Counted from the stretch's first letter, positions 12,261 through 59,886 are shown. The stretch is DNA of 64,000 bases from Bacteroidales bacterium (GCA_017535325.1 JAFXUC010000029.1:14878-78877), one strand, 5' to 3'. The notes: a model not told the origin generated them from the sequence alone. Translations and numbers: made by a program.

Positions 12261-12298
12261 AAAAAAACGAATTGAAATTATTTCAATTCGTTTTTTTT
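12261..12298. terminator. bidirectional hairpin terminator between queA and the convergent gene
   Basis: A7-CGAATTGAAA-TTA-TTTCAATTCG-T8. A perfect 10-bp stem that overlaps the last codons of the minus-strand gene. Confidence 0.7.
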
Positions 12299-26779: not shown

Positions 26780-26808
26780 GTTGGAGTGCGGGCTTCCAGC
26801 CCGCTTTG
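26780..26808. terminator. GC-rich hairpin (bidirectional terminator) between the DUF4249 gene and the ParE-like gene
   Basis: GTTGGAGT-GCGGGCT-TCC-AGCCCGC-TTTG. A near-identical 26-nt module recurs at 59386..59411. Confidence 0.6.
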
Positions 26809-26819
26809 CTCTAAATACA

Positions 26820-27131
26820 TTATTTAACTTGTGCAGCAAGTGTGTCCGGGTCGCGGCGGCAGTCCCAAAAATCCACCACAGAAACACAATCATCCTTGAT
26901 GCAATAGACAATCTTATTATGACGTGAAACGACAAAACTGCGGTATTCACAAGGCAAATCAATTAAGAAAGGCTCCAACTTTCCGATATAAGGATTGTTT
27001 TCTATAAGTTTTCTCGTATGACGCACCTCGCTCATAAATTTATCTTTACTTTTTCTGCCGAACTCCGTCAAAATGTATTTGGCAGTTTTGTAAATCGCTT
27101 GTTTTGCAAACTTTGAAATAAAAACTTTCAT
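26820..27131 (-). CDS. ParE/RelE-superfamily type II toxin (cassette 1)
   Basis: 103 aa. Typical Bacteroidota ParE-like layout: ...NPYIGKLEPFL...YRSFVVSRHNKIVYCIKDD.VSVVDFWDCRRDP. 4-nt overlap with the upstream small acidic ORF. Confidence 0.75.
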   Translation of the reverse strand: MKVFISKFAKQAIYKTAKYILTEFGRKSKDKFMSEVRHTRKLIENNPYIGKLEPFLIDLPCEYRSFVVSRHNKIVYCIKDDCVSVVDFWDCRRDPDTLAAQVK

Positions 27132-27451
27132 ACCGCTTCTGCCATTTCAAGTTCTGGTTCTTCGATTTTGAGTTCTGACTCTATTTCGTCCATCGCTTCA
27201 TCAAAATCCATATATTCTCCTGCGGCAAACTGCTTTTCACTTTCGGCAATCCGCGCATGAAGTTCTTCAATTGTATAAGGCATGGGAAAGTCCTCTTCTT
27301 CTTCCGACTCTACAAACACCGGTTCAAGACTTCCAAGCAGCATCAAGCCTAATTCATATCTCTGAGCATTATTCAGATTCCATTTTTGCACCTCGTCCCA
27401 ATACGTTGAAACCTGCGGCGCAGCAGTACGTTTTTTTGTTAATGTTTCCAT
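27128..27451 (-). CDS. putative antitoxin of cassette 1 (acidic, 107 aa)
   Basis: Start moved to the ATG at 27451 (METLTKKRTAAPQ...). Acidic C-terminus (EEPELEMAEAV). Translationally coupled to the toxin. No recognisable RHH/HTH. Confidence 0.6.
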   Translation of the reverse strand: METLTKKRTAAPQVSTYWDEVQKWNLNNAQRYELGLMLLGSLEPVFVESEEEEDFPMPYTIEELHARIAESEKQFAAGEYMDFDEAMDEIESELKIEEPELEMAEAV

Positions 27452-27538
27452 AGTAATTTTATTTTTACGGGGTAAAGGTAAAGATTTTTTTTGAATGAAC
27501 AACGTTTTTTTATAATTATTAATTCAATGTTAACAAAA

Positions 27539-27762
27539 TGGAAAAACGATTTTGCACCTTGCAATAATGACTTTTCCATAGTGGAAAAACGATTTTGCAC
27601 CTTGCAATAATGACTTCTCCATAGTGGAAAAATGATTTTGCACCTTGCAATAATGACTTTTCCATAGTGGAAAAACGATTTCGCAGGTTGCAATAATGAC
27701 TTTTCCATAGTGGAAAAATGATTTTGCACCTTGCAATAATGACTTCTCCATAATGGAAAAAC
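27539..27762 (-). repeat. tandem array of 43-bp direct repeats (5 full units plus a 9-nt partial), no spacers
   Basis: Units start at 27539, 27582, 27625, 27668, 27711 and 27754. Plus-strand unit: TGGAAAAACGATTTTGCACCTTGCAATAATGACTTTTCCATAG. It contains the palindromes TTTTCCA-TAG-TGGAAAA and TTGCA-CCT-TGCAA. A conserved 40-nt flank lies at 27497..27536. Confidence 0.95.
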
Positions 27763-27776
27763 TAAATCACAAAAAA

Positions 27777-28091
27777 TTAATACACAAATTCTTTCTTTAA
27801 TTTTTCAGGATTGCGTCTCATATCCCAGAAATCGACTATTTCTATGCTGTAATTACTTATATAGTAGATAATTCTGTTGTATTTGTCAATTATGTAACTT
27901 CTGAATTTCAACGGCGCATCTTCCAATAAAAGTTCTGTTTGACCAAGTTTCGGGTTGTTTTCTAAAAGTTCAGTAATATGAAAAACTTTTTTCAGAAATT
28001 TGGTTTTACTCTTTTTCCCGTATTCGGTTTCTATGTAATCCGCAGTTTTTGAAACCTTTTTCAAGGCGAATTTTGACCATATTACTTTCAT
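27777..28091 (-). CDS. ParE/RelE-superfamily type II toxin (cassette 2)
   Basis: 104 aa paralog of 26820..27131 (NPKLGQTELLL...FRSYIIDKYNRIIYYISNYSIEIVDFWDMRRNP). 4-nt overlap with its upstream partner. Confidence 0.75.
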   Translation of the reverse strand: MKVIWSKFALKKVSKTADYIETEYGKKSKTKFLKKVFHITELLENNPKLGQTELLLEDAPLKFRSYIIDKYNRIIYYISNYSIEIVDFWDMRRNPEKLKKEFVY

Positions 28092-28339
28092 GCCGTCTCC
28101 AATTCGTATTCTTCCATGCCGAGCATCGCCATAACTTCCTCATTTGTATAACATTCGCCGTTTTCTATTTGGCGGTGTCCTGTCATGGCGCGTTTGATAA
28201 GTTCTTCTTTGGGATTTAAATTCAAGAATTCTTTTTCCGTGAGATAATTTTCTAATTCGTCAATCAGCCACGAAATATCTTTGTTGGAAAGCGTCCCGAT
28301 GATAAAATCCTTAAACTTGATTAATTCGTCTTTGTTCAT
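28088..28339 (-). CDS. putative antitoxin of cassette 2 (83 aa)
   Basis: Small acidic protein ending EEYELETA. Translationally coupled to the toxin. Confidence 0.6.
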   Translation of the reverse strand: MNKDELIKFKDFIIGTLSNKDISWLIDELENYLTEKEFLNLNPKEELIKRAMTGHRQIENGECYTNEEVMAMLGMEEYELETA

Positions 28340-36296: not shown

Positions 36297-36312
36297 TTTT
36301 CAAGCAGACGGC

Positions 36313-36654
36313 TTAATCCAAGTTATTCTTTTTGATTAATCGTTGGATTTCCTTGTCGGAAATGCTGTCTTGCTCTGATTTGTCGTAAATAGTTAAAAGT
36401 GTGGTGTTTACACCGTCAGTCTCAATGATGACATTATGTGTTATGACTCTTGCGCCGCCGCTTTTGCCCTTGTTTTTTGATGCGATTGCCATTCTGACTT
36501 TGCGGACATTATGCCCCAAATCCGTCCCTAAGAACGGATTTGCCGTTAATTCTTCAAGAAAACTTTTATAGTCTTCTTTAATTGATTTGTAGCGTTTTGA
36601 AAGTCTTTTAAATTCACGCACAAAATCCGGAGAAGCAAATATTCTACAATTCAT
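36313..36654 (-). CDS. RelE/HigB-like type II toxin (cassette 3)
   Basis: 113 aa. F..EFKRLSKRY...LGHNVRKVRMAIASKNKGKSGGARVI is typical of this addiction-module toxin family. Overlaps the upstream small ORF by 11 nt. Confidence 0.7.
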   Translation of the reverse strand: MNCRIFASPDFVREFKRLSKRYKSIKEDYKSFLEELTANPFLGTDLGHNVRKVRMAIASKNKGKSGGARVITHNVIIETDGVNTTLLTIYDKSEQDSISDKEIQRLIKKNNLD

Positions 36655-36889
36655 TTAACAGTTCCTCCGCTGGTATGCATTTGATTTTGCCTTCTTTAAT
36701 TAAATTGACTTGTGCCAAAGCATGGTCAATTTGTTCAAGTGTTTTTTGTTTTTCTTTTTCCTGCGCCCGTTTCCGTTTGTTTTCGGCGAGTTTTTTTACG
36801 TAGTCAATTATCTGACGAAGAATGTCTTTGTCGTCGGCAACCTCGCCCATAACACGGAACAATTCGGCGTTTAACTGTAATGCTGTCAT
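36644..36889 (-). CDS. putative antitoxin of cassette 3
   Basis: 81 aa, helical, charged (KRKRAQEKEKQK). Overlaps the toxin start. Confidence 0.55.
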   Translation of the reverse strand: MTALQLNAELFRVMGEVADDKDILRQIIDYVKKLAENKRKRAQEKEKQKTLEQIDHALAQVNLIKEGKIKCIPAEELLNEL

Positions 36890-36974
36890 AATTTTAAACT
36901 TTTTTTCTGCGCAAAGATAACAACGCCAGAAGAAAAAACAAAATTTATTTCCGGCAAAAACGGCTAATACTTAG

Positions 36975-38066
36975 TTAGTTTTTAATCAATTCATAACACG
37001 TACTTCTGCCGTTGGATTCCGTTTTTATCAAAACCCCTTTTTTTACCAAATCCTGAATGTCCCTGAGTGCAGTGTCAGGCGAACATTTTGCAATTTTTGC
37101 CCATTTGCCGGTTTGAAGTTTGCCTTCAAAACCGTCCCAAAGCATATTGATTATTTTTATCTGACGCGGATTAAATCCAGCCAAACGGTATTTGTCCCAA
37201 AACGCCGCTTTTTGCAAAGTTTTGTCCGTTGTCAGCAAGGCTTTTTTAACGGACTGATTAAGACAGTCCAAAAACCACAAAAGCCATTCTGAAATATCCA
37301 AACCGCCTTTTTGTGTGCTTTCCAAAACGCTGTAATACGATTTACGGTTTTCTGCAATAGCCGCCGACATACTGTAAAAACGGTTACGGCTTTTGTCGCT
37401 GCGAGCCAAAAGCATGTCCATGATAGTACGTCCGAGCCGTCCGTTGCCGTCGCTGAAAGGGTGAATCGTTACAAACCACAAATGCGCTATTGCCGCTTTT
37501 ATTATGCCGTCAACATTTGAGGTTTCGACAAATTTAAAAAGATCTTCCATCATTCCCGGAATCTGCGATGACGGCGGTGCTTCGTAATGCACCATTTCGC
37601 TGCCGTAACGTCCTGAAACCACCTGCATTGGCAAACTGCTTTTACGGTATTCACCCACCGTTATTTTTTCAAAACTTTTTACGGACGGGAAAAGAAGCGT
37701 ATGCCAGCGGAACAGTCTTTCGCTTTTCAGCGGCTCGTCATAATTGCTTACCGCGTCCAACATTACCTCAACAACGCCTTCAACATAACGGTTTGAGGCG
37801 GGAACACCGGCGTTTTCTAATCCAAGTTGCCACGCCACTGACGAGCGCACGTCGTCGCGGCTGAGCATAATGCCTTCTATTGCCGATGACATCAAAATAT
37901 CAGCGGTCATTGAATCAAGAACGGTGGAATTTTTTACGTCAAAACCGAGCGTTGCCATCATTCCCGAAAGCCGTCCTATTTCGAGTTTGACGTCAGAAAG
38001 CCTTTGTAATACTTTTTCTTTGTCCCAAACAAAATGCGGAAAATCTTTTTCTTGCCAGATATACAT
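36975..38066 (-). CDS. Fic/DOC family protein (class II Fic with N-terminal inhibitory motif, C-terminal wHTH)
   Basis: Start moved to the ATG at 38066 (MYIWQEKDFPHF). Canonical active site HPFSDGNGRLGRT (HxFx[DE]GNGRxxR). The upstream SSAIEG matches the [ST]xxxE[GN] auto-inhibition motif. Confidence 0.88.
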   Translation of the reverse strand: MYIWQEKDFPHFVWDKEKVLQRLSDVKLEIGRLSGMMATLGFDVKNSTVLDSMTADILMSSAIEGIMLSRDDVRSSVAWQLGLENAGVPASNRYVEGVVEVMLDAVSNYDEPLKSERLFRWHTLLFPSVKSFEKITVGEYRKSSLPMQVVSGRYGSEMVHYEAPPSSQIPGMMEDLFKFVETSNVDGIIKAAIAHLWFVTIHPFSDGNGRLGRTIMDMLLARSDKSRNRFYSMSAAIAENRKSYYSVLESTQKGGLDISEWLLWFLDCLNQSVKKALLTTDKTLQKAAFWDKYRLAGFNPRQIKIINMLWDGFEGKLQTGKWAKIAKCSPDTALRDIQDLVKKGVLIKTESNGRSTCYELIKN

Positions 38067-38207
38067 ATTGTTTAATTTTTTTCTGCGGTGAATAACCGGT
38101 CTAATCACCGCAAATTCTGCGGCGAATATAATAATTTTTCACCGCATAGAAAAGAAAAAGTAAAAAAAATAAAATTCCAAACATTTTGCGATTTTCGGCA
38201 AAAGTAT

Positions 38208-38215
38208 TATTTTTG
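38208..38215 (+). promoter_or_regulatory. Bacteroidota -7 box (TATTTTTG)
   Basis: TAnnTTTG match 25 nt upstream of the ATG at 38240. Supports the shorter start for the TIR gene. Confidence 0.5.
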
Positions 38216-38239
38216 TGCAGTAAATCAACAGCAAAAAAC

Positions 38240-39262
38240 ATGAACAATCCCGTATATATATCGTATGCTTGGGCTAACGACAACAATCCCGATTTGGAGG
38301 ACGATGTTAACCGTTTGTGCCGCGTTATGGAAAAAAACGGTATTTATTATAAGCGCGACAAAGAAAACCTTTGTCCCTACCGTTGGAGTATAAACAAAGC
38401 CGAAGAAGAAATCGGAGAAGGTTGCGCCGTTATCGTTGTTATCAGCGAAAAATACATAAAATCTCTTCACTGTATGCACGAATGGCATTTGATAAAAGAA
38501 AACGGAAGAATCTGGCAGAGAGTTTTTCCTATCGTTTTAAAAGGTGCGGATTTGACCAACAAATGTAAATATAAGGAGTATTACAAATTTTTTATAGACC
38601 GCCGTGACGAACTTGTTGAACAACTCCGCGAAGGTATTATTCCGCTTTCGCAGTCGGAAACCGAGGCGGCGCGTTTCGGATATTATATCTCCGACCTCGC
38701 TGAAATGTACCAGTATCTTACCGATTACAATACCGCAAAATCCGTAGTCAGAGAAAACGATTTTGAATTGGTAATCAGTCAGTTGAAAAAATATTTAGGT
38801 GTTTTTGACTCTAAGATACAAAAGCCGGAGCCTAAACCGGAACCGAAGAAAGACTCTAAACCCAAAAAAGAACCTAAACCTGAACCCAAAAAAGAAGAAT
38901 CTCAAAAAAAAGGCGGTTCTGTTTATGACGGTTTGACAAAAAGGCAGACTTCCTTGTTGCAAAAAAATATTAACTCCACTTATTATGCGTTTTTGGAGGA
39001 CGAAAAAAATGACAATAACGGTTATGCAGCTAAGGAATTTTTAAAGAATGTAACGAAACCGCTTCGTACTGACGGCGTTTATGATGAGGAAACTAAAAAT
39101 GCTGTTATGGAGTTGCAACACTATCTTAACCGCAGACAAGTAGGTTGGTTGGAAATATCTTTGACGCTTGACGGAATTTACGGTCCTAAAACCGAAGACG
39201 CATACGACAAGTGGTCTAAAAAAGCAAATCCTAATGCTGATAAAAGAATTTTAGATAAATAA
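38240..39262 (+). CDS. TIR-domain protein fused through a PEPK-repeat linker to a peptidoglycan-binding-like (PG_binding_1) domain
   Basis: The N-terminus MNNPVYISYAW and ...VVISEKYIKSLHCMHEW match the TIR beta-A and S..Y..S..C..E motifs. Linker KPEPKPEPKKDSKPKKEPKPEPKKEE. The C-terminal DGVYDEETKNAVMELQHYL...DGIYGPKTEDAYDKW resembles PG_binding_1 repeats. No signal peptide. Confidence 0.7.
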   Translation: MNNPVYISYAWANDNNPDLEDDVNRLCRVMEKNGIYYKRDKENLCPYRWSINKAEEEIGEGCAVIVVISEKYIKSLHCMHEWHLIKENGRIWQRVFPIVLKGADLTNKCKYKEYYKFFIDRRDELVEQLREGIIPLSQSETEAARFGYYISDLAEMYQYLTDYNTAKSVVRENDFELVISQLKKYLGVFDSKIQKPEPKPEPKKDSKPKKEPKPEPKKEESQKKGGSVYDGLTKRQTSLLQKNINSTYYAFLEDEKNDNNGYAAKEFLKNVTKPLRTDGVYDEETKNAVMELQHYLNRRQVGWLEISLTLDGIYGPKTEDAYDKWSKKANPNADKRILDK

Positions 39263-39296
39263 AAAAAGCGGCTAAAAAAAGCCGCTTTTTATTTTA
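39263..39296. terminator. bidirectional hairpin terminator between the TIR gene and serS
   Basis: A-run-AAGCGGC-loop-GCCGCTT-T-run. Confidence 0.7.
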
Positions 39297-40574
39297 TTAT
39301 TCGATGGTGTCGAAATGTGTGTATTGTCTTAATACTTCGGGGATTTCGATTTTGTCTGCTTTCTGACAGTTTTCGAGGATTGAAGCCACGATTCTCGGCA
39401 ATGCGAGACCCGAACCGTTCAAAGTGTGGCAGAGTTTCGACTTTTTGTCGCCCTCTTCTCTGAAACGCAGTTTCAAGCGGTTTGCCTGGAAAGATTCAAA
39501 GTTGGAAACCGAACTTACTTCAAGCCATTTGCCCTGAGCGGCGCACCATACCTCAAAATCGTAGGTCATAGCCGAGGTAAAACTCATGTCGCCGCCGCAA
39601 AGACGGATAATTCTGTACGGAAGTTTCAATTTTTTGAGCAAGCCTTCAACGTGCAAAACCATCATGTCCAGAGCGTTGTAACTCTTGTCGGGGTGAACGA
39701 TTTGAACTAATTCCACTTTGTCGAACTCATGCAGACGGTTGAGACCTTTAACGTCTGAGCCGTAACTGCCCGCCTCGCGTCTGAAACACGGCGTATAAGC
39801 GCAGTGTTTAATCGGAAGTTGTTTAACGTCAAGGATTTCGTCTCTGTAAATGTTGGTGACAGGAACCTCTGCCGTGGGAACAAGATACAGATTGTCAACC
39901 TCGCAGTGATACATCTGACCTTCTTTGTCGGGAAGTTGTCCCGTGCCGAAACCTGATGCCTCGTTTACCAAAACAGGCGGCTCAACTTCCAAGTAGCCTG
40001 ATTTTTCAGCCTCGTCAAGGAAAAAGTTGATAAGTGCGCGTTGAAGTTTTGCGCCTTTGCCTTTGTAGAGCGGAAAGCCTGCGCCGGTGATTTTAACGCC
40101 GGTTTCAAAGTCGATGATGTCGTATTTTTTAGCCAAATCCCAGTGGCAAAGCGGTTGAAAACCTTCATAATTAGGATTTTCGCCGCCACGACGGATTTCT
40201 ACGTTGTCTGCTGCGCTTTTGCCCGGTGCAACAAGTTCGTAAGGAAGGTTAGGCAGCAAAACCAAAGTGTCAAAAAGTTCCTTGTCAAGAGCCTGAAACT
40301 TGTCTTCCTGCTCTTTGATAATGGTTTTGAGTTCCGTAGAACGTCCTTTTGCAGCCTCTGCGCCTGCTTTGTCGCCGTTTTTGAAAAGTTCGCCGATTTT
40401 TTTTGCCAATCCGTTTTGTTCGGCTTTATTGTCTTCGAGTTGTTTTTGGATTTCGCGTTTTTCCTTGTCAAGGGCGACGATTTTTTCAACCGCCGGTCTT
40501 GCGTCGCGGTTTTTTATCGCCAAACGCTCAATCACAAATTCGGGATTCTCTACTATTGTCTTTACTAACAGCAT
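39297..40574 (-). CDS. serS: seryl-tRNA synthetase
   Basis: N-terminal coiled-coil arm, class II core (LPIKHCAYTPCFRREAGSYG, TLNGSGLALPR). 425 aa. Confidence 0.95.
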   Translation of the reverse strand: MLLVKTIVENPEFVIERLAIKNRDARPAVEKIVALDKEKREIQKQLEDNKAEQNGLAKKIGELFKNGDKAGAEAAKGRSTELKTIIKEQEDKFQALDKELFDTLVLLPNLPYELVAPGKSAADNVEIRRGGENPNYEGFQPLCHWDLAKKYDIIDFETGVKITGAGFPLYKGKGAKLQRALINFFLDEAEKSGYLEVEPPVLVNEASGFGTGQLPDKEGQMYHCEVDNLYLVPTAEVPVTNIYRDEILDVKQLPIKHCAYTPCFRREAGSYGSDVKGLNRLHEFDKVELVQIVHPDKSYNALDMMVLHVEGLLKKLKLPYRIIRLCGGDMSFTSAMTYDFEVWCAAQGKWLEVSSVSNFESFQANRLKLRFREEGDKKSKLCHTLNGSGLALPRIVASILENCQKADKIEIPEVLRQYTHFDTIE

Positions 40575-40676
40575 GATGTACTTAATTATAAATAAAAACT
40601 CCCAAGAGATTTTTCTAAACGAAAAGCCGTCTCAGGAGTCGTTGTTTTTTTGTTGTTTAATTTAAATATTCATACG

Positions 40677-40943
40677 TTATTTGGCTTCAACGTTTTCAAT
40701 TACGTTAACGTAACTTTTGTCTTTGCCTTTAACTTCAAATTTCACTACTCCGTTTGTGAGTGCAAAAAGAGTGTGGTCTTTGCCCATACCTACGTTTTTG
40801 CCCGGATAGTGCTGTGTGCCTCTCTGACGTACAATAATGTTGCCGGCGATAACTGCCTCACCGCCGAATTTTTTTACGCCCAAACGTTTGCTGTGTGATT
40901 CGCGGCCGTTTCTCGAACTGCCGACACCTTTCTTATGTGCCAT
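40677..40943 (-). CDS. rpmA: 50S ribosomal protein L27
   Basis: [29 protein letters not shown]. Confidence 0.95.
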
Positions 40944-41006
40944 TTCTTTTACTAAGTTTTTGAGATTTTACAATAAATTTGTCTTAAAATTCTTACCGCC
41001 AAACTT

Positions 41007-41318
41007 TTAGAAATTAATATCTTCGATAAGAATCTGGGTTAAATACTGACGGTGTCCCCTCTTAACGGCGTAACCTTTTCTGCGTTTTTTGTGGAAAACG
41101 ATAACTTTGTCGTCTTTGAGGTGTTTGAGAACTTTTGCGGAAACCTTTGCGCCTTCTACTTTCGGTGCGCCGATTTTAACATCGCCGTCGTTGTCAACCA
41201 AAAGAACGTTGTCGAAACTTACATTGCTGCCTTCTTCGTTTTTGAGGCGGTGAACATAAACTTTTCTGTCTTTCTCAACTTTGAACTGTTGACCTAAAAT
41301 TTCTACTATTGCGTACAT
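41007..41318 (-). CDS. rplU: 50S ribosomal protein L21
   Basis: Start moved to the ATG at 41318 ([16 protein letters not shown]...). Conserved rplU-rpmA order. Confidence 0.93.
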
Positions 41319-41498
41319 TTTTTGAAATTTTTTGTGCCGGTAAGGCGGTAACTTTATAAAAGTCAATCACTTAAAATACCTCCCGACTGATTAATACTAT
41401 TTTTTCGTGCGGCAAAATTACGCTTTTTTATTCATATAACAAAATTTTTTGGATTTTTTTTGTTATTTTTTCTCTTTGGAAGTTATCAAAAAAATAAC

Positions 41499-41506
41499 TA
41501 CCTTTG
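41499..41506 (+). promoter_or_regulatory. Bacteroidota -7 box (TACCTTTG)
   Basis: TAnnTTTG match 25 nt upstream of the ATG at 41531. Confidence 0.5.
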
Positions 41507-41530
41507 CACCCCGAAATAACGAATGAATAG

Positions 41531-44500
41531 ATGGGAAAATTTTTCGGAAAAACTTGGTGGGGCGAGCGGTGGCTCAACGCGCTTTCAGGTATAGACTTAT
41601 CAAACCGTATACCGAGAGGTTCGTCCTATGCAAAAAACGGAATGGTCAAAAGCCTTAAATTCAGCGGAAACAAGGTTTCTGCGGTTGTGCAGGGCACATG
41701 GAATTATTTTGTGGATATAGAAATTCCCGAATTTGACGGGGCACGGTTTGAAAATTTTATCGGCTGCCTCAGGGAAAAGCCTGCCGTTATTTCAAAACTT
41801 CTGAACAGGGAACTCGACCCTGAAATCCTTGACATCGCCCAAAAGTCGGGCTTGAAAGTTTTCCCGGGAAGGTGGAGCGACATAAGAATGCACTGCGATT
41901 GTCCCGATTCTGCCGTCCCCTGCAAACACCTTGCGGCTGTCATCTACACGATAAGCCGCGAAATCGACAACAATCCTTTTGTGGTTTTCAAACTTCACGG
42001 CGTAGATTTGATTGAGGAACTCAAAAAACGCGGCTTGGAACTCGACGCTGAAAACCTTATCGAAGTTCCCGGTTTGGAATCTCTTTTTGAAAAAGACAAA
42101 AAGCCGTCACCCTCAGGAGAGTTTTTCAGGGTGGATTTTTCCGTTATCAACGACAATATTCAGGCTATCGGCAACATTCTGCCGAAAGAGACACCTTTTT
42201 ATCCGACAGCAGGTTTCTACAAAAAATATAATTCCGAAATTCTTTACATTGCAAAGACTGCAAAACTGATTCTTGAAAAAAAATCGGATTTTTTTGAGCG
42301 GCTTTGTGAAAATTCCAAAACCAATTTTGACGGAAAAATTACCAACGATACCGAATTTCAGATATTTGCAGATTCGGATTTTAATTTTTTTGTTGCAGAA
42401 AAAGATACTGAAAAAACTTGGCCATTAGAAGAAATTTTGTATCAGGTTTTTTCTATTCCGCAGGATTACATAACAGATTTTTCACCGTCGGTAATCGCTA
42501 TTAATCAAATTATTATCTGCGCGTTGTATCTTTTGGCGAGCGGAAATTTTGCTCCCGCCGTTTTCAAAACCTCTGTTAAAAACTATTTCGCGGTGTGGTT
42601 CGGTACAAAAATCGACCCTTCTGTGGACGTCGTTTTCAACAGTCTTGAAAAAATATTTCCCTCGGATTTGTTTACCGTAAAACCCTTCAATGGCAGAAAA
42701 TATTTCCCGGTAAAACGCCGTGCGGGGCTTGCTGTTTCGGCGTTTGTCGGCTTTTTGGTTTCCAAGATTTCGCGCTCTGACAAGGGCGACAAAATTTTGG
42801 AGTTTCTTTTCCGTCAAAAGACCGAGCGTTTTGCCTCTCCGGGCGAAAAGGAAATCCCCGGCAGCATCAAGGCGTGGACTGACAGATTGTTTTTCAACAC
42901 CGGTCAATACGGCTTTCAGGTGGTTGTAACGGAGGCAAACAGGGAGTGTTTCAATCTTGAACTGTCCGTTGACATCAAAAAAGAGACTGTTTTGCTCAGG
43001 GAAATTTTGCAGTTGAAAAAATACGTGGGCGAAAAATTCAAGATTCTCAAAGAACTTTCCCTGATTTCAACGTTTTTGGAAGGTTACGAAAAATACATCA
43101 ATTCTGACGCTTCGGAGCCGATGGTTTATACTTTGGCGGGCTTGTCGGAATTTTTGTTTTCGATTGCGCCGTCTTTGAAACTTCTCGGAGTAAAAATCAT
43201 GCTGCCGAAGTCTTTGAAAAACCTGACACGTCCGAGGGTTATGATGAAAATTTCCGCTCAGCAGAGTAAGTCAAAGAGTTATATCCGTCTTGACGACCTT
43301 TTGAATTTTGACTGGCAAATCGCTTTGGGCGACAACAGCATAAGTTACGAGGACTTTTTGAAACTTTATTCAAAGGCGAGCGGACTTGTGAAAATCAAGC
43401 AGAGTTATTTTTACATCAACGAGTCCGACATTGAGCGCATAAAAAAAGTCGTTGACACAAAAACGGGCTTTTCAAAAGCGCAGATTTTGCAGACGGCTTT
43501 GTCGGAGAGTTTTGACAATATGCCCGTTGAACTCAACAAAGAGGCGAAAGAGTTGATTAAAAAGATTAAGAATTTTCCGGAAGTTCCCGTCCCTGAAAAT
43601 ATTCACGCCGTTCTAAGACCTTATCAGCAAAGAGGTTACGAATGGCTATGTAAAAACAGCAGACTGGGTTTCGGAAGTATTCTGGCTGACGACATGGGTC
43701 TCGGAAAAACGCTTCAAACGGTTGCCTTTTTGCAGAATTTGAAAAACGCGGGCGCGTTCAAGAAGAAAAAAGCCTTGGTTGTAGTGCCGACGGGCTTGAT
43801 TTCAAACTGGCAAAACGAGGTCGCAAAATTCGCTCCCGAAATGACCGTTTTCACTTATCACGGCATTGACAGGGACATCAAAAAATTTGACACCGACGTT
43901 TTTTTGACAACTTACGGCGTAATGCGCTCCGATGTTGACAAACTTAAAAAATTCAAATGGGCGGTTATGGTGATTGATGAGGCGCAAAATATTAAGAATC
44001 AGACGACTGCGCAGACCAAGGCGGCGGTTTCGCTTTCTGCCGACACCAAGATTGCGCTTTCGGGTACGCCTGTCGAAAACCGTCTGTCGGAGTTTTGGAG
44101 CATAATGAATTTTGTCAACGCGGGTTATTTCGGCTCGCTGAAAAAGTTTTCGGAAAATTATGCGAATCCGATTCAGAACCTCGGCGACAAGGTTTGTGCG
44201 GAGCGTTTGAAAAAATCCGCCGCGCCGTTTATGATGCGCCGTCTGAAAACCGACAAGACGATTATCAACGATCTTCCCGACAAAATTGAGCAGAACGAAT
44301 TTGCGCAACTCACCGCTCAGCAGGCGGCTGTTTACGAAACCACCCTGCAAGAGGCGATGACGGCGATAAAAGGTATAGAACAGACTGATTCACAGTCGCT
44401 TTTCAAACGTCAGGGTTTGATTCTTCAAATGATTCTGGCTCTGAAACAGATTTGCAACCACCCCGCGCTGTTTCTTAAAAACAAGGATTTCAACCCCGGA

Positions 44501-45016
44501 CTTTCGGGCAAGGCGGAGATGTTTCTCTCGCTTGTTGACAATATCACGGAAAGCGGTCAGAAGGCGATTGTTTTCACTCAGTTTAAGGAAATGGGCGACA
44601 TTCTCTCTGAAATGGTTTTTCAGCAGACGGGCAGGCGTCCGCTCTTTTTGCACGGCGGCTGCACCGTTGAGCAGAGAAAGCAGATGGTGGAAAAATTTCA
44701 GACGCAGCGTCAGCACCAGATTTTTATACTTTCGCTCAAAGCGGCGGGTACGGGTCTTAATCTAACTGCGGCAAGTCATGTGATTCATTACGATTTGTGG
44801 TGGAATCCGGCTGTGGAGGCGCAGGCAACAGACCGCGCTTACCGTATCGGACAGCATCAAAACGTTATGGTTCACCGTTTTATAACGCAGAATACGTTTG
44901 AGGAAAAAATCGACAAAATGATTCAGGACAAAAAACTTCTTGCCGATATGACCGTTGCCTCAGGCGAAAGTTGGATTGGAAAACTCACAAATAAGCAGTT
45001 GGAAGAGTTGTTCTGA
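41531..45016 (+). CDS. SNF2-family helicase with N-terminal SWIM zinc finger
   Basis: SWIM CDCPDSAVPCKH. SNF2 motifs DDMGLGKTLQT, DEAQNIKN and GTGLNLTAASHVIHYDLWWNPAVEAQATDRAYRIGQ. 1161 aa. Confidence 0.88.
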   Translation: MGKFFGKTWWGERWLNALSGIDLSNRIPRGSSYAKNGMVKSLKFSGNKVSAVVQGTWNYFVDIEIPEFDGARFENFIGCLREKPAVISKLLNRELDPEILDIAQKSGLKVFPGRWSDIRMHCDCPDSAVPCKHLAAVIYTISREIDNNPFVVFKLHGVDLIEELKKRGLELDAENLIEVPGLESLFEKDKKPSPSGEFFRVDFSVINDNIQAIGNILPKETPFYPTAGFYKKYNSEILYIAKTAKLILEKKSDFFERLCENSKTNFDGKITNDTEFQIFADSDFNFFVAEKDTEKTWPLEEILYQVFSIPQDYITDFSPSVIAINQIIICALYLLASGNFAPAVFKTSVKNYFAVWFGTKIDPSVDVVFNSLEKIFPSDLFTVKPFNGRKYFPVKRRAGLAVSAFVGFLVSKISRSDKGDKILEFLFRQKTERFASPGEKEIPGSIKAWTDRLFFNTGQYGFQVVVTEANRECFNLELSVDIKKETVLLREILQLKKYVGEKFKILKELSLISTFLEGYEKYINSDASEPMVYTLAGLSEFLFSIAPSLKLLGVKIMLPKSLKNLTRPRVMMKISAQQSKSKSYIRLDDLLNFDWQIALGDNSISYEDFLKLYSKASGLVKIKQSYFYINESDIERIKKVVDTKTGFSKAQILQTALSESFDNMPVELNKEAKELIKKIKNFPEVPVPENIHAVLRPYQQRGYEWLCKNSRLGFGSILADDMGLGKTLQTVAFLQNLKNAGAFKKKKALVVVPTGLISNWQNEVAKFAPEMTVFTYHGIDRDIKKFDTDVFLTTYGVMRSDVDKLKKFKWAVMVIDEAQNIKNQTTAQTKAAVSLSADTKIALSGTPVENRLSEFWSIMNFVNAGYFGSLKKFSENYANPIQNLGDKVCAERLKKSAAPFMMRRLKTDKTIINDLPDKIEQNEFAQLTAQQAAVYETTLQEAMTAIKGIEQTDSQSLFKRQGLILQMILALKQICNHPALFLKNKDFNPGLSGKAEMFLSLVDNITESGQKAIVFTQFKEMGDILSEMVFQQTGRRPLFLHGGCTVEQRKQMVEKFQTQRQHQIFILSLKAAGTGLNLTAASHVIHYDLWWNPAVEAQATDRAYRIGQHQNVMVHRFITQNTFEEKIDKMIQDKKLLADMTVASGESWIGKLTNKQLEELF

Positions 45017-47733: not shown

Positions 47734-48159
47734 TTGAAAGCCGCATTGTTGCTTTTGGTTTGCTTGGAATTTTCGTGTGCGAAAACAGAACGCGGAGATT
47801 CTGTTTTTAATATAAAAGTGTTAGTCAATGACGGTCGGACAGCCTTGGCGTATAAAAAAATATATTGCGTAAGCGAAGTCTCAAAAGATGTTCAACGCTA
47901 TTCAATATATAGCGAAGTAACTGACAGTATAGGGGTTGCAACGTTTCATATACCTGCAAGAACGCTTGCTATCGGTTACAAGGATGAGTACGGAAGCCAA
48001 TCTGTTTGTGATTGTCAGGCGTTTTTTGAGTTGCTGTACAACGACGACATTTATTACACAAAATTTTATGTACAGCATATTGATATCAATGAGGAAAGGG
48101 AATATGATTATAGTTTAGAGATTAATACTCAACAAAAACCTCCTTTGATTGAGGAATAA
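47734..48159 (+). CDS. small lipoprotein, unknown function
   Basis: TTG start inside a T7 run. MKAALLLLVCLEFSCAK lipobox. 141 aa. Confidence 0.55.
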   Translation: MKAALLLLVCLEFSCAKTERGDSVFNIKVLVNDGRTALAYKKIYCVSEVSKDVQRYSIYSEVTDSIGVATFHIPARTLAIGYKDEYGSQSVCDCQAFFELLYNDDIYYTKFYVQHIDINEEREYDYSLEINTQQKPPLIEE

Positions 48160-48199
48160 AAAAATGCGGATTTTCTTTTAAAAAAATCCGCATTTTTTA
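48160..48199. terminator. bidirectional hairpin terminator
   Basis: ATGCGGATTTT-loop-AAAATCCGCAT flanked by A and T runs, between convergent genes. Confidence 0.7.
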
Positions 48200-53944: not shown

Positions 53945-53986
53945 AAAAAATGCGGCTCTGAGAATTTTTAGAGCCGCATTTTTTTG
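53945..53986 (+). terminator. rho-independent terminator after the GH51 gene
   Basis: AAAAAATGCGGCTCT-loop-AGAGCCGCATTTTTTT. Confidence 0.75.
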
Positions 53987-53999
53987 TTATAGAATTTAT

Positions 54000-54101
54000 G
54001 ATAACTTAGCGGAATCGCCCAAAAAAATCATACATTCCGCTATGCTATCCACGATAACTTAGCGGAATCTGTAAAAAAAATCCACATTCCGCTATGTTAT
54101 C
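54000..54101. repeat. two tandem ~49-nt palindromic units (period 53 bp)
   Basis: Unit 1, 54000..54049: GATAACTTAGCGGAAT-N18-ATTCCGCTATGCTATC. Unit 2, 54053..54101: GATAACTTAGCGGAAT-N17-ATTCCGCTATGTTATC. The arms are reverse complements with 1-2 mismatches in 16. Confidence 0.85.
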
Positions 54102-54108
54102 AAGAAAA

Positions 54109-54141
54109 ATATCGTTATATTTGCAAAAAAAATAACGATAT
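54109..54141 (+). promoter_or_regulatory. 10-bp inverted repeat bracketing the -7 box (TATATTTG, 54116..54123) and the start codon of the ATPase gene
   Basis: ATATCGTTAT (54109..54118) and ATAACGATAT (54132..54141) are perfect reverse complements. The right arm includes the AT of the ATG at 54140. Confidence 0.6.
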
Positions 54142-55573
54142 GGACAACACCGAAATTATTGGCAGAGAGATTGAGCGTCAACTACTTAAACGCACTTACA
54201 ATTCAGGAACAAACGAATTTGTAGTAGTTTATGGCAGAAGGCGCGTTGGTAAATCGTTCCTTATAAACAAATATTTTGGGGGAATGTTTGATTTTTATAT
54301 GACGGGGCTGTACCAAAAGCCCAAGAATTTTTTGCTATCAACATTCGCTGTTGCGCTTGAAGAATATTCAGGGAAAAGTCGTCCCGTGCCCAAAAATTGG
54401 ATGACAGCAATGCAGCAACTCAAAGAATACCTGTCATCATTGTCGGCGAAACAGCGCATCTTGGTTTTTATCGACGAAATGCCGTGGCTCGACACTCCAA
54501 AATCCGATTTTTATGCCGCCTTTGAGTGGTTTTGGAACGGATGGGCTGCAAATCAAAAAAACATTATGATGGTAGTATGCGGCTCGGCAACTTCGTGGAT
54601 TGTTGAAAAAATACTCAGCGATAAAGGCGGTTTTTTCAACCGTGCCACCGTGAGAATTGCCCTAAAACCGTTTACGCTTCACGAAACCGAACTTTACTTA
54701 AAGTCAAACGGCGTAGATTTCTCACGTCGCGACATTGCCGAATGTTATATGACGATGGGCGGCATACCGTTTTATCTGAAACAGATTTCGCCCGCACTCA
54801 GTTTCAACGCCAATATCGACAGGATGTTTTTTGGTGAAAGCCCGTTGCTTGATGGCGAATTTAAGGCGTTGTTCAATACACTGTTCAAAAATTCAGAACC
54901 GTATATGAAAGTTGTAGAAGCGTTGTCAACAAAAAATATGGGTCTTACCCGCAAGGAGGCTCTCGCCGTCACCAAAATGACTGACAATGGAACGTTTACA
55001 AAACTATTAGACGACCTTTGCACTTCGGGAATCATCACTGCCTACAACTATTTTGGGTCAGAAAGGAAAGATACAGTATATCAACTATGCGACTTTTTCA
55101 CATTGTTCTATTTCCGTTTTATCAAAGGGCGTAGCGGCAATGACGAACATTTTTGGACGTTAACCATTGATAATCCTATGCGACGTGCGTGGGCGGGATA
55201 CACTTTTGAACTTCTTTGCAAATATCACATCACACAACTGCGCAAAGCGATAGGAATCAGCGACGTACTTACAGAATGTTCGGTATGGTTTCACAAAGAA
55301 AACGGCAAACGCGGTTGTCAGATTGACCTTGTAATTATGCGTCGCGACAATGTTATCAATATCTGCGAAATGAAATTTTGCAACGGCGAATACGTAATTG
55401 ATGCCGGCGATGAGGCCAATTTCCGCAACAAGATTGAAACCTTCCGCCGTGCCACAGCCACAAAACATTCGTTATATTTTACAATGATAACCACATACGG
55501 CATCAAGAGCAATGCTTACAGCGGCATTGTTCAAAAAAGTATTATACTTGACGATTTGTTTGATTACAACTAA
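54140..55573 (+). CDS. AAA-type ATPase (archaeal-ATPase/DUF234-like family)
   Basis: IGREIERQLL...FVVVYGRRRVGKSFL (Walker A), ILVFIDEMPWL (Walker B-like), and a C-terminal DUF234-like nuclease-fold region (CQIDLVIMRRDNVINICEMKF). Confidence 0.75.
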   Translation: MDNTEIIGREIERQLLKRTYNSGTNEFVVVYGRRRVGKSFLINKYFGGMFDFYMTGLYQKPKNFLLSTFAVALEEYSGKSRPVPKNWMTAMQQLKEYLSSLSAKQRILVFIDEMPWLDTPKSDFYAAFEWFWNGWAANQKNIMMVVCGSATSWIVEKILSDKGGFFNRATVRIALKPFTLHETELYLKSNGVDFSRRDIAECYMTMGGIPFYLKQISPALSFNANIDRMFFGESPLLDGEFKALFNTLFKNSEPYMKVVEALSTKNMGLTRKEALAVTKMTDNGTFTKLLDDLCTSGIITAYNYFGSERKDTVYQLCDFFTLFYFRFIKGRSGNDEHFWTLTIDNPMRRAWAGYTFELLCKYHITQLRKAIGISDVLTECSVWFHKENGKRGCQIDLVIMRRDNVINICEMKFCNGEYVIDAGDEANFRNKIETFRRATATKHSLYFTMITTYGIKSNAYSGIVQKSIILDDLFDYN

Positions 55574-59110: not shown

Positions 59111-59299
59111 TTTCTTTTTTAATTTTATTAGATAAAACAAAAAACAAAGAAGAATTCAAAACGTCTTCCATTTTGGATTCTCCCTTGCTTAAAACATTAA
59201 CTACGCTGCAAAGTTAATATGAATTTTTGTTTAAAAAAAATTTTTTGAAAGAATTTTGCGAAATTAATATTACAAATGTTTTTTTGTCAGCGGGGGTTT

Positions 59300-59443
59300 T
59301 TGCCGCTAAGAGCGGCAACACAGCCGCCTAACGTATGCCGCCGCTCTGCGGCTGGAATTCTATTACAGGGTGCAAAATATAAAAAGTTGGAGTGCGGGCT
59401 TCCCAGCCCGCCTTATAAGCGTTTTGCAGGCAGGGATGCCTGC
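59300..59443. other. cluster of GC-rich hairpins in an AT-rich spacer
   Basis: TTGCCGCT-AAG-AGCGGCAA (59300..59318). AGAGCGGC (59309..59316) is complementary to GCCGCTCT (59340..59347). CAGCCGC (59321..59327) is complementary to GCGGCTG (59348..59354). GCGGGCT-TCCC-AGCCCGC (59394..59411). GCAGGCA-GGGA-TGCCTGC (59426..59443). Confidence 0.7.
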
Positions 59444-59461
59444 GTTCCAATACTTCTTTAC

Positions 59462-59740
59462 CTTGCAAAATCATTTTGTTACTATGACAAAGTCATTATT
59501 GCAAGGTGTAAAATGGTTTTGCTACTATGACAAAGTCATTATTGCAAGGTGTAAAATGGTTTTGTCGTTATGACAAAGTCATTATTGCAAGGTGCAAAAT
59601 CGTTTTGTCGTTATGACAAAGTCATTATTGCAAGGTGTGAAATGGTTTTGTTGTTATGACAATGTCATTATTGCAATGTGCGAAATGGTTTTGTCGTTAT
59701 GACAAAGTCATTATTGCACCTTGCAATTTTCATTTTGCAA
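59462..59740 (+). repeat. second tandem array of the 43-bp repeat family (6 units plus a partial), inverted relative to 27539..27762
   Basis: Units start at 59462, 59505, 59548, 59591, 59634, 59677 and 59720. Example unit: GGTGCAAAATCGTTTTGTCGTTATGACAAAGTCATTATTGCAA. The 30-nt core equals the reverse complement of the array-1 core. The shared 40-nt flank at 59743..59782 has one mismatch against 27497..27536. Confidence 0.95.
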
Positions 59741-59805
59741 TTTTGTTAACATTGAATTAATAATTATCAAAAAACGTTGTTCTGATATAGTACACAAGCG
59801 AAGAA

Positions 59806-59886
59806 ATGTTCAAAGACCTTAACGATGAATTTCATTTCCTTGATACCCGCCGCGACCCGGACGCGCTTGCCGCACAAGTTAGATAA
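59806..59886 (+). pseudogene. relic of a ParE-like toxin gene (C-terminal 26 codons only)
   Basis: Reads MFKDLNDEFHFLDTRRDPDALAAQVR*. The last ~40 nt are nearly identical at nucleotide level to the 3' end of 26820..27131 (...DFWDCRRDPDTLAAQVK*). Confidence 0.7.

Follow-up and report, generated by a model that had tools for sequence, protein, structure and literature searches.

Spacer-less 43-nt tandem hairpins beside ParE/RelE-type toxin-antitoxin cassettes in ruminant-gut Bacteroidales

A row of 43-nt repeats lies between two toxin-antitoxin (TA) cassettes in a 64,000-nt stretch of DNA from a Bacteroidales bacterium (GCA_017535325.1 JAFXUC010000029.1:14878-78877; hereafter the window, at its full length), raising the question of what kind of element it is and to which of its neighbours it belongs. 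A preliminary description of this DNA had proposed either a protein-binding array, resembling an operator or a centromere, or a processed repeat RNA tied functionally to the flanking cassettes. On balance, we favour a different answer, namely that the row, which we call array 1, is a lineage-restricted, spacer-less tandem-hairpin repeat of the kind represented by BOX, BrickBuilt, and PgRS, placed at the upstream end of a ParE/RelE-type cassette. The array family would be new; hairpin repeats beside RelE-superfamily TA operons are already known in the pneumococcus.

Array 1 occupies 27536..27776 on the minus strand, where a degenerate leading half-unit (27776-27753) is followed by five 43-nt hairpin units with junction arms TGGAAAA/TTTTCCA (type A). 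Tandem Repeats Finder (TRF) recovered 5.2 copies of a 43-bp unit at 27539..27762, with 92% matches, no indels, and a score of 392, confirming the exact spacer-less period reported earlier and returning the same unit as consensus. Both short palindromes reported for each unit are present in the sequence, as is the changed centre of the fourth unit (CGCAGGTTGCAA, at 27668), and the array scores 66.7-71.3 bits on the minus strand with model R1. It begins 14 nt past the stop of the ParE-like open reading frame (ORF) 27777..28091, the distance given previously, with no terminator between. At its other end lies a conserved A/T-rich tail (TTTTGTTAACATTGAATTAATAATTATAAAAAAACGTTGTTC; 27497..27538, minus strand), the 3' end of which abuts the promoter region of the second cassette. 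A motif scan placed the candidate Bacteroidetes -7 box of that cassette, TACCTTTA, at 27473..27480 on the minus strand, downstream of array and tail and 59 nt from the end of the array; this box and the antitoxin start (ATG at 27451) are both where the preliminary description had put them. A separate small palindrome, TTTAC-CCC-GTAAA, overlaps the -7 box. The possibility of a coding array was rejected, in agreement with the earlier view: 43 is not a multiple of 3 and units with type-B arms (see below) contain stops, although type-A units have no stop in any sense frame.

A second array had been overlooked. The 17-nt core GTCATTATTGCAAGGTG has 11 matches in the window at three or fewer mismatches, against 0.12 expected, and all 11 sit in two arrays. 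Array 2 (59460..59742, plus strand; TRF score 388) comprises a leading half-unit (59460-59482) and six 43-nt units with type-B arms (TGACAAA/TTTGTCG), the last of which has a flipped centre (TTGCACCTTGCAA); with model R1 it scores 61-68.9 bits on the plus strand. It is found between a greA-like gene and the ATP synthase operon, and its unit is related to that of array 1 and opposite in orientation. The same 42-nt A/T-rich tail, TTTTGTTAACATTGAATTAATAATTAT[A/C]AAAAAACGTTGTTC, closes both arrays: 27497-27538 on the minus strand aligns with 59741-59782 on the plus strand, and an exact 27-mer within the tail is common to the flank of array 1 and 59741-59767. At array 2 (tail 59741..59795, plus strand) the 42 conserved nt are followed by the extension CTGATATAGTA, which recurs in two related loci, L077 and L079. 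These two loci, along with L089 and L090, also have the tail itself. Because both arrays end in the same tail, they have a polarity, and the strand that reads array and then tail is here called sense (minus for array 1, plus for array 2).

In the register TGGAAAAGTCATTATTGCA-AGG-TGCAAAATCGTTTTTCCA-CTA, the unit forms an imperfect hairpin of 18 bp with one bulged A, a 3-nt AGG loop, and a 3-nt linker; the two palindromes of the preliminary description are the tip and the base of this one long hairpin. Among 25 distinct units from seven assemblies, 94.7% of cells are paired, compared with 40-56% when the partners are slid. Two pairs in this set are fully compensatory (GC<->AU and AU<->CG), and eight pairs vary on one side with a G.U pair kept. 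The junction arms come in four versions (TGGAAAA/TTTTCCA, TGACAAA/TTTGTCG, TATAGA/TCTATA, and GGTAGAA/TTCTACC), each of them complementary, and the first two coexist within the genome of the window. Pairing is also biased toward one strand. The non-Watson-Crick pairs on the sense strand of the 24 unique units in standard orientation are G.U in 69 cases vs A.C in 6, and in five arrays out of six it is the sense strand that folds more stably (array 1, -70.4 kcal/mol sense vs -65.1 kcal/mol antisense; array 2, -96.5 vs -66.6 kcal/mol). The folding z-scores of the two window arrays run from -6.1 to -9.6, with -7.4 and -9.6 for the sense strands. Within the unit, the 5' arm and loop are nearly invariant and the 3' arm drifts via transitions that preserve pairing. 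Since the two arrays are mutually inverted, each co-directional with its downstream genes, while the GC skew keeps one sign across the window, the favoured strand tracks the direction of the downstream genes and not replication. Taken together, the pairing, the arm variants, the G.U bias, the folding, and the asymmetric drift argue for a folded single strand as the role, or at least the history, of the unit, rather than for a symmetric duplex site. With regard to the two proposals made initially, the strand-specific conservation of the hairpin makes a single-stranded role, be it as RNA or as single-stranded DNA, more likely than a protein-binding duplex.

To which cassette does array 1 belong? 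Cassette 1 (27777..28339, minus strand) comprises antitoxin 1 (28088-28339) and the ParE-like toxin 1 (27777-28091), which matches Pfam ParE_toxin (PF05016; E=1e-9). Cassette 2 encodes, on the same strand, a 107-aa antitoxin (27128..27451) and a 103-aa toxin (26820..27131) that belongs to the RelE/ParE superfamily by its homologues. Toxin 2 itself gives weak YoeB/RelE-type matches only; P0003, which is 85% identical to it, has a weak precomputed match to PF05016, and the related toxin found between greA and the atp operon in L088/L089 has a PF05016 match that is not marked as weak. The label ParE-type, given previously to both cassettes, is thus clear for toxin 1 and holds for toxin 2 as RelE/ParE through its homologues. 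The window (27760-27298) aligns over 465 nt, at 93% identity, with L089, which comes from another strain. This block takes in the array with its tail, the promoter region, and ~150 nt from the start of the antitoxin 2 gene; past it, identity drops to 50-60%. The greA-atp locus of L088/L089 consists of a five-unit type-A array, the tail, an intact 111-aa antitoxin gene, and the gene for a 103-aa ParE toxin. Because the block recurs at this second locus, array 1 is to be assigned to cassette 2, at its upstream end, and not to cassette 1; the tie to the flanking cassettes that had been suspected is therefore real as a physical link to the downstream one and fails for the other.

The window itself has, just past array 2, a decayed TA remnant (59791..59886, plus strand) in which a C-terminal piece of an antitoxin is fused to the C-terminus of a toxin (YTSEEMFKDLNDEFHFLDT joined to RRDPDALAAQVR, then a stop). 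A 41-nt stretch of the 3' end of the toxin 2 gene matches the sequence directly after the tail of array 2, and on sequence comparison the remnant is the L088/L089 pair after two deletions. Over ~82 kb of unbroken sequence, made up of the window and 10 kb to either side of it on contig ERZ27256878:k141_24106, model R1 found two arrays and no solitary units, both arrays lying beside this type of cassette or its remnant. The genes around them are ftsX, rbfA, PBP, topoisomerase, and greA genes and the ATP synthase operon.

Related arrays were found in four genomic contexts and at least two species-level lineages, all from ruminant-gut metagenomes. In L075/L077, array and tail lie between a putative DNA methyltransferase gene (assigned by eye; no Pfam match) and a DUF6261 gene. 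Four units, lacking a tail, follow the ODP gene in L078, whose source is a relative 78% identical at the nucleotide level in the atp operon; in the strain of the window this spot is a 13-nt intergenic gap with no array. The tail is thus kept at three of the four contexts, while no leader is common to them, only a degenerate half-unit. No TA genes accompany the arrays in L077 and L078. The converse also occurs: a toxin 2 homologue with 65% identity and a clearly homologous antitoxin has a 95-nt upstream region without an array (L083-86).

The number of units varies among strains. At locus 1 there are five (window, L001-3, L006, and L008), four (L079), or three (L009), and at locus 2 six (window, L092-94, and L097), five (L096, L090, L073/74, and L088/89), four (L070), or two (L091); L007 has neither cassette 2 nor array. 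Strains have different arm types at one and the same locus, L077 and L079 contain many units with a flipped central palindrome, and contigs break off within arrays or carry N gaps there. L079 (5030-6520) is further rearranged in that ParE1 is mostly deleted and the second toxin, P0003, is chimeric, with a ParE1-like 3' end and downstream spacer. This variant, as far as its sequence goes, points to recombination between two paralogous toxin genes across the array.

The array family is rare. Further loci were gained from spurious ORFs called on related arrays, through a protein-database search with array translations, and in all, a search of 5.8 billion protein clusters yielded just five called ORFs of this origin. 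A HMMER search with the array peptide against 1.84 billion cluster representatives gave no additional true arrays; P0011-13 proved to be repeat proteins of an unrelated kind. Three scans of viral contigs, with the unit, the flipped unit, and the tail, returned nothing but one chance match in a coding region. The pattern CATTATTGCA-N31-35-CATTATTGCA, scanned against a genome collection, gave 60 loci, mostly chance or unrelated tandem repeats and none matching model R1; this pattern was too loose, and the scan did not recover the species of the window.

The nearest parallels to the array family are found in other bacteria. Pneumococcal yefM-yoeB and hicBA have BOX elements upstream, and relBE is associated with RUP repeats (PMC10532202); a boxAC element sits directly upstream of the RelE-superfamily yefM-yoeB operon, supplying a promoter there, and downstream BOX insertions have been proposed to stabilise mRNA (PMC10532202). 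The initial remark that no described ParE/RelE module was known to carry such an array was therefore too strong. BOX elements are highly abundant in pneumococcal genomes (PMC10532202), co-transcribed, and strongly structured (PMC3049150). Their likeness to our arrays lies in the 45-nt boxB of BOX (boxA-[boxB]n-boxC), which occurs in variable tandem number, in their intergenic position and hairpin formation, in the spurious ORFs that large copies generate, and, as it appears, in restriction to a narrow clade and in co-transcription with neighbours. In BOX, however, the boxA and boxC ends are conserved and pair with each other, whereas here the tail alone is conserved and each unit forms its own hairpin; our arrays also have no internal promoter motif, a copy number that looks low, and a dissimilar sequence. 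BrickBuilt of P. gingivalis is a spacer-less 23-nt minisatellite with a leader and a tail, and MITE464/PgRS consists of 41-nt repeats; BrickBuilt is further marked by IS5-like terminal inverted repeats, by ~19 copies in each genome, and by promoter activity in both directions (PMC4596501). Like these elements, which come from the same order, Bacteroidales, the arrays are spacer-less intergenic direct repeats that are strain-variable and, as it appears, species-restricted. No counterpart to the terminal inverted repeats, the copy number, or the promoter activity of BrickBuilt was found here, and our units are long hairpins linked to a TA cassette. Inspection of the array ends at the four contexts revealed neither terminal inverted repeats nor target duplications, and a scan with the -7 consensus TAnnTTT[G/A] found no box on either strand inside either array.

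Repetitive extragenic palindromic (REP) elements, which are reported to act as stabilisers of mRNA 3' ends, and the bacterial interspersed mosaic elements (BIMEs) built from them offer a more distant comparison. They too are intergenic imperfect palindromes, and enterobacterial REPs are transcribed with flanking operons. REPs, however, are high-copy, with alternating orientation and variable linkers, whereas the arrays appear low-copy and are head-to-tail with an exact 43-nt period, which supports the previous remark that the array is far more regular than a REP cluster. No RAYT-type transposase was found in the window.

If array 1 is indeed a repeat of the BOX/BrickBuilt/PgRS kind, then such arrays would grow and shrink by slippage or unequal exchange, be homogenised through gene conversion, and travel with the cassette via homologous recombination, without a dedicated enzyme. 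Because array 1 starts 14 nt past a stop codon with no terminator between, it would be transcribed by read-through from cassette 1, and five stable hairpins would then form in the resulting RNA, directly before the cassette 2 promoter. This row of hairpins could end, process, or stabilise the upstream transcript, or could shield the autoregulated cassette 2 promoter from read-through. By analogy, such a role as transcript boundary, stabiliser, or insulator fits what has been proposed for BOX and REP.

Several observations weigh against this reading. Transcription of the array is something we infer, and at array 2 the upstream greA is divergent and a motif scan found no recognisable sense promoter. 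The best hairpins are those of array 2, beside a dead cassette, so the upkeep of the hairpins is independent of a working TA module. The G.U excess is partly inherited and its cases are not all independent, coming down to ~8 variable positions vs 4, and template switching at quasi-palindromes can yield compensatory changes without selection. The strand preference is not absolute, either: in L077 and L079 the flipped central palindrome turns G.U into A.C, and in L077 the antisense strand folds slightly better. No U-run follows the array hairpins, so they are not canonical terminators, though the genome has such terminators (53945-53984). Finally, in lacking a conserved leader, terminal inverted repeats, and a target duplication, and in its low apparent copy number, the family appears unlike BOX and BrickBuilt.

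The alternative that survives best, unlikely as we hold it to be, is a selfish, non-autonomous minisatellite resembling a miniature transposable element with inverted repeats (MITE), with no effect on its neighbours and with shared variable intergenic hot spots explaining its proximity to TA genes. Croucher et al. reached this conclusion for BOX, RUP, and SPRITE (PMC3049150), and much of the distribution described above would suit it: four contexts in at least two species-level lineages, the presence/absence difference after the ODP gene, assemblies that break within arrays, and neighbouring repeats upstream of array 2 (the head element and GC hairpins described below) that are likewise polymorphic and invertible. 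A mobile element of this type is harder to square with array ends at which no terminal inverted repeats or target duplications are seen, a window without a transposase, two arrays and zero solitary units in ~82 kb, and very few array-derived ORFs among ~15 billion proteins. Moreover, both arrays in the genome of the window have the same tail, and each lies beside a TA cassette or its remnant.

A duplex operator array is a somewhat weaker candidate. Here, the palindromes would be binding sites, spaced at four turns of the helix (the 43-bp period is ~4 turns), for antitoxin 2, for the TA complex, or for some other dimeric regulator. No part of the unit is better conserved than the inner arms TTGCA/TGCAA, which persist when the centre is flipped, and array and tail are co-inherited with the promoter and the N-terminal half of the antitoxin, the toxin-binding half and the toxin being different. 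Against such a site, type A and type B junction arms occur side by side in one genome, and arms also vary among strains whose antitoxin is the same (L079), yet they always stay complementary, which speaks for structure rather than for sequence recognition; and a nearly invariant 5' half-site paired with a 3' half-site that drifts by G.U-preserving transitions is unlike a symmetric duplex site. As for position, 59 nt separate the end of the array from the -7 box, which puts the array upstream of the -33 region and not over the cassette 2 promoter, where a type II operator would lie, and TTTAC-CCC-GTAAA at the -7 box is the more ordinary operator candidate. The range of 2 to 6 units, arrays without TA genes (L077 and L078), and TA genes without an array (L083-86) point the same way. 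The array-less L083 may have one similar inverted repeat of the junction type near its -33 element, a weak likeness (z ~2.4, its alignment lying ~2.4 sd above shuffles) on which we do not rely.

A centromere would be another duplex site. The F-plasmid centromere sopC is built of direct 43-bp repeats, each with a 7-bp inverted repeat, and by TRF and on sequence our arrays share the tandem 43-bp direct repeats and the 7-bp inverted-repeat arms. The parallel drawn from this in the preliminary description did not hold up. Pfam gene tables span the greater part of the window together with 10-kb flanks at both ends, and the remaining large ORFs were scanned too; this search found no partition, cas, integrase, or transposase genes, and specifically no sopA/sopB or parA/parB-type Pfam families. 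No similar plasmid was found in PLSDB. The arrays are instead chromosomal, between housekeeping genes, and come as two with different arms, and the strand asymmetry of their G.U pairs argues against a duplex site. Phage matches were limited to a 45-nt AT-rich stretch in a T4-like capsid assembly gene, which we regard as chance and rejected. That the array is not CRISPR, as had been stated, is plain from units that abut without spacers; cas genes are likewise missing from the window and the 10 kb on either side.

About as doubtful as the operator is the idea that the array is no passenger but a built-in component, acting in cis, of a portable ParE/RelE-type cassette, its sense RNA setting the level of read-through to the promoter or acting as decoy or substrate of the toxin, or its folded strand serving as an exchange site. 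If this is true, type II TA systems would gain an accessory module of a new kind.

We regard it as improbable that the arrays define a portable recombination module, through which TA cassettes are swapped, duplicated, or excised, whether by RecA or by a recombinase specific for single strands, as at integron attC sites. The folded strand with its bulged base is reminiscent of attC, the 465-nt block does occur at two loci, the region upstream of array 2 is rearranged in L073/L074, and L079 has, besides its chimeric toxin, the ParE1 3' end duplicated on either side of the array-antitoxin 2-toxin 2 segment. Yet the units are tandem, not one per cassette; no integrase or other recombinase, tyrosine recombinases included, was found in the window or flanks; and the shared block stops inside the antitoxin gene without a defined cassette boundary, the two loci having no common right-hand end.

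A processed repeat RNA, either type III-like or part of a type II/III hybrid, with unit-length RNAs that bind the RelE/ParE-type toxin or are cleaved by it, is very improbable, even though RelE-superfamily proteins include RNases, the sense strand keeps its structure, its 5' arm and loop hardly varying, and the arrays resemble ToxI, CptI, and TenpI in being short tandem structured repeats that adjoin toxin genes in the same orientation: both cassettes encode a protein antitoxin of their own, neither toxin falls in the ToxN/AbiQ, CptN, or TenpN families, the -7 box downstream of the array leaves the cassette's own mRNA without it, and arrays persist beside a dead cassette and without TA genes, just as a TA homologue exists without an array. 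Unlike in type III systems, a tail, a -7 box, and a 107-aa antitoxin gene separate the array from toxin 2. Rfam gave no ToxI or other match at gathering score; at E<=10 there were only sub-threshold matches to miRNA precursors with long hairpins, due to the similar shape. The proposed parallel with ToxI thus failed on toxin family, antitoxin, and Rfam alike.

If array 1 is a lineage-restricted tandem-hairpin repeat, it adds an example from uncultured rumen Bacteroidales to the small set formed by BOX, BrickBuilt, and PgRS. Its unusually clear base-pair covariation and strand-specific G.U signature make a folded single-strand role testable. Its recurrent place at the upstream end of one TA cassette family, and the series of strains from intact cassette to remnant, amount to a natural experiment in the joint spread and decay of such repeats and TA modules. 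On the practical side, the arrays break short-read assemblies and give rise to spurious protein predictions, such as the 142-aa P0007 and P0008, and unit number, which ranges from 2 to 6 across the assemblies compared, could be used to mark strains.

Other small repeats lie near the arrays. Upstream of array 2 (59291..59450, plus strand) are an ~80-nt GC-rich head element (CGGGGGTTTTTGCCGCT..GCGGCAACAC..CCGCCTAACGTAT..GCGGCTGGAATTC; 59291-59370) and GC hairpins at 59386-59412 and 59425-59444, all of them separate elements that are independently polymorphic, being present, absent, or inverted according to strain. The head element is cleanly absent in L090, inverted in L073/L074, and placed after a toxin gene in L007 (4748-4830) and L079 (6357-6440). 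Its best Rfam match, Acido-Lenti-1, is sub-threshold (18.8 bits vs a gathering score of 37), and from its distribution it looks like a separate small mobile or recombining repeat. The GC hairpin at 59386-59412 (plus strand; GTTGGAGT-GCGGGCTTCC(C)AGCCCGC) has an inverted copy, GCGGGCTGGAAGCCCGC-ACTCCAAC, at 26780..26806 on the minus strand, directly past the toxin 2 stop, so that cassette 2 at locus 1 is flanked by array 1 on one side and by this hairpin on the other. The copy at 26780..26806 lacks a trailing U-run and is thus not a canonical terminator. In L078 (6330-6460), three more GC-rich hairpins (CCGTGGGTTCACACCCACGG, CACCCCTACGGGGT, and GACGGGGGTGTGACCCCCCGGC) stand between the ODP gene and the array, so that here too small palindromic repeats cluster beside an array.

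The unit also resembles the start of its own cassette. The junction ACTATGGAAA(A), repeated within 27539-27762, recurs as the start-codon context of antitoxin 2, ACTATGGAAA(C) (27440-27460), with CATTA next in both; a local alignment gave P ~0.0065 against shuffles, post hoc. In addition, TTTCCAT at the boundary of array and tail is complementary to ATGGAAA at the antitoxin 2 start codon. The 43-nt unit may have arisen through duplication of the 5' end of the cassette.

Among the hits of the loose genome-collection pattern are long spacer-less arrays containing CATTATTGCA, with periods of 21, 42, and 63 nt, in metagenome-assembled genomes of Bacteroidota and Ignavibacteria (L024, L068, L044, L051, L025, L041, and L037). 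None matches model R1, and that they have this 10-mer in common probably just reflects the pattern used to find them; long spacer-less tandem arrays seem to be common in the phylum Bacteroidota.

Elsewhere in the window, ~36300-45016 holds a defence-like cluster with a small RelE-like pair, a Fic/DUF4172 gene (36975-38108), a gene for a TIR_2 and PG_binding protein (38186-39262), and one for an SNF2-family helicase (41531-45016). No array accompanies this third TA-like pair. The TIR gene of L004 lies directly beside the RelE-like pair, with the Fic gene missing; the cluster thus varies by strain. A self-BLAST of the window revealed perfect or near-perfect palindromes at 12261-12297, 48159-48198, and 53945-53984. 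The last of these (AAAAAATGCGGCTCT..AGAGCCGCATTTTTTT) has an A run on one side and a T run on the other, the shape of a bidirectional intrinsic terminator, from which it follows that the genome uses canonical terminators. Close by, at 54000-54110, two direct 53-bp repeats, each with the inverted repeat TAGCGGAAT-N17/18-ATTCCGCTA, lie just upstream of an ATPase_2 (PF01637) gene (54140-55573) and may be a pair of regulator-binding sites.

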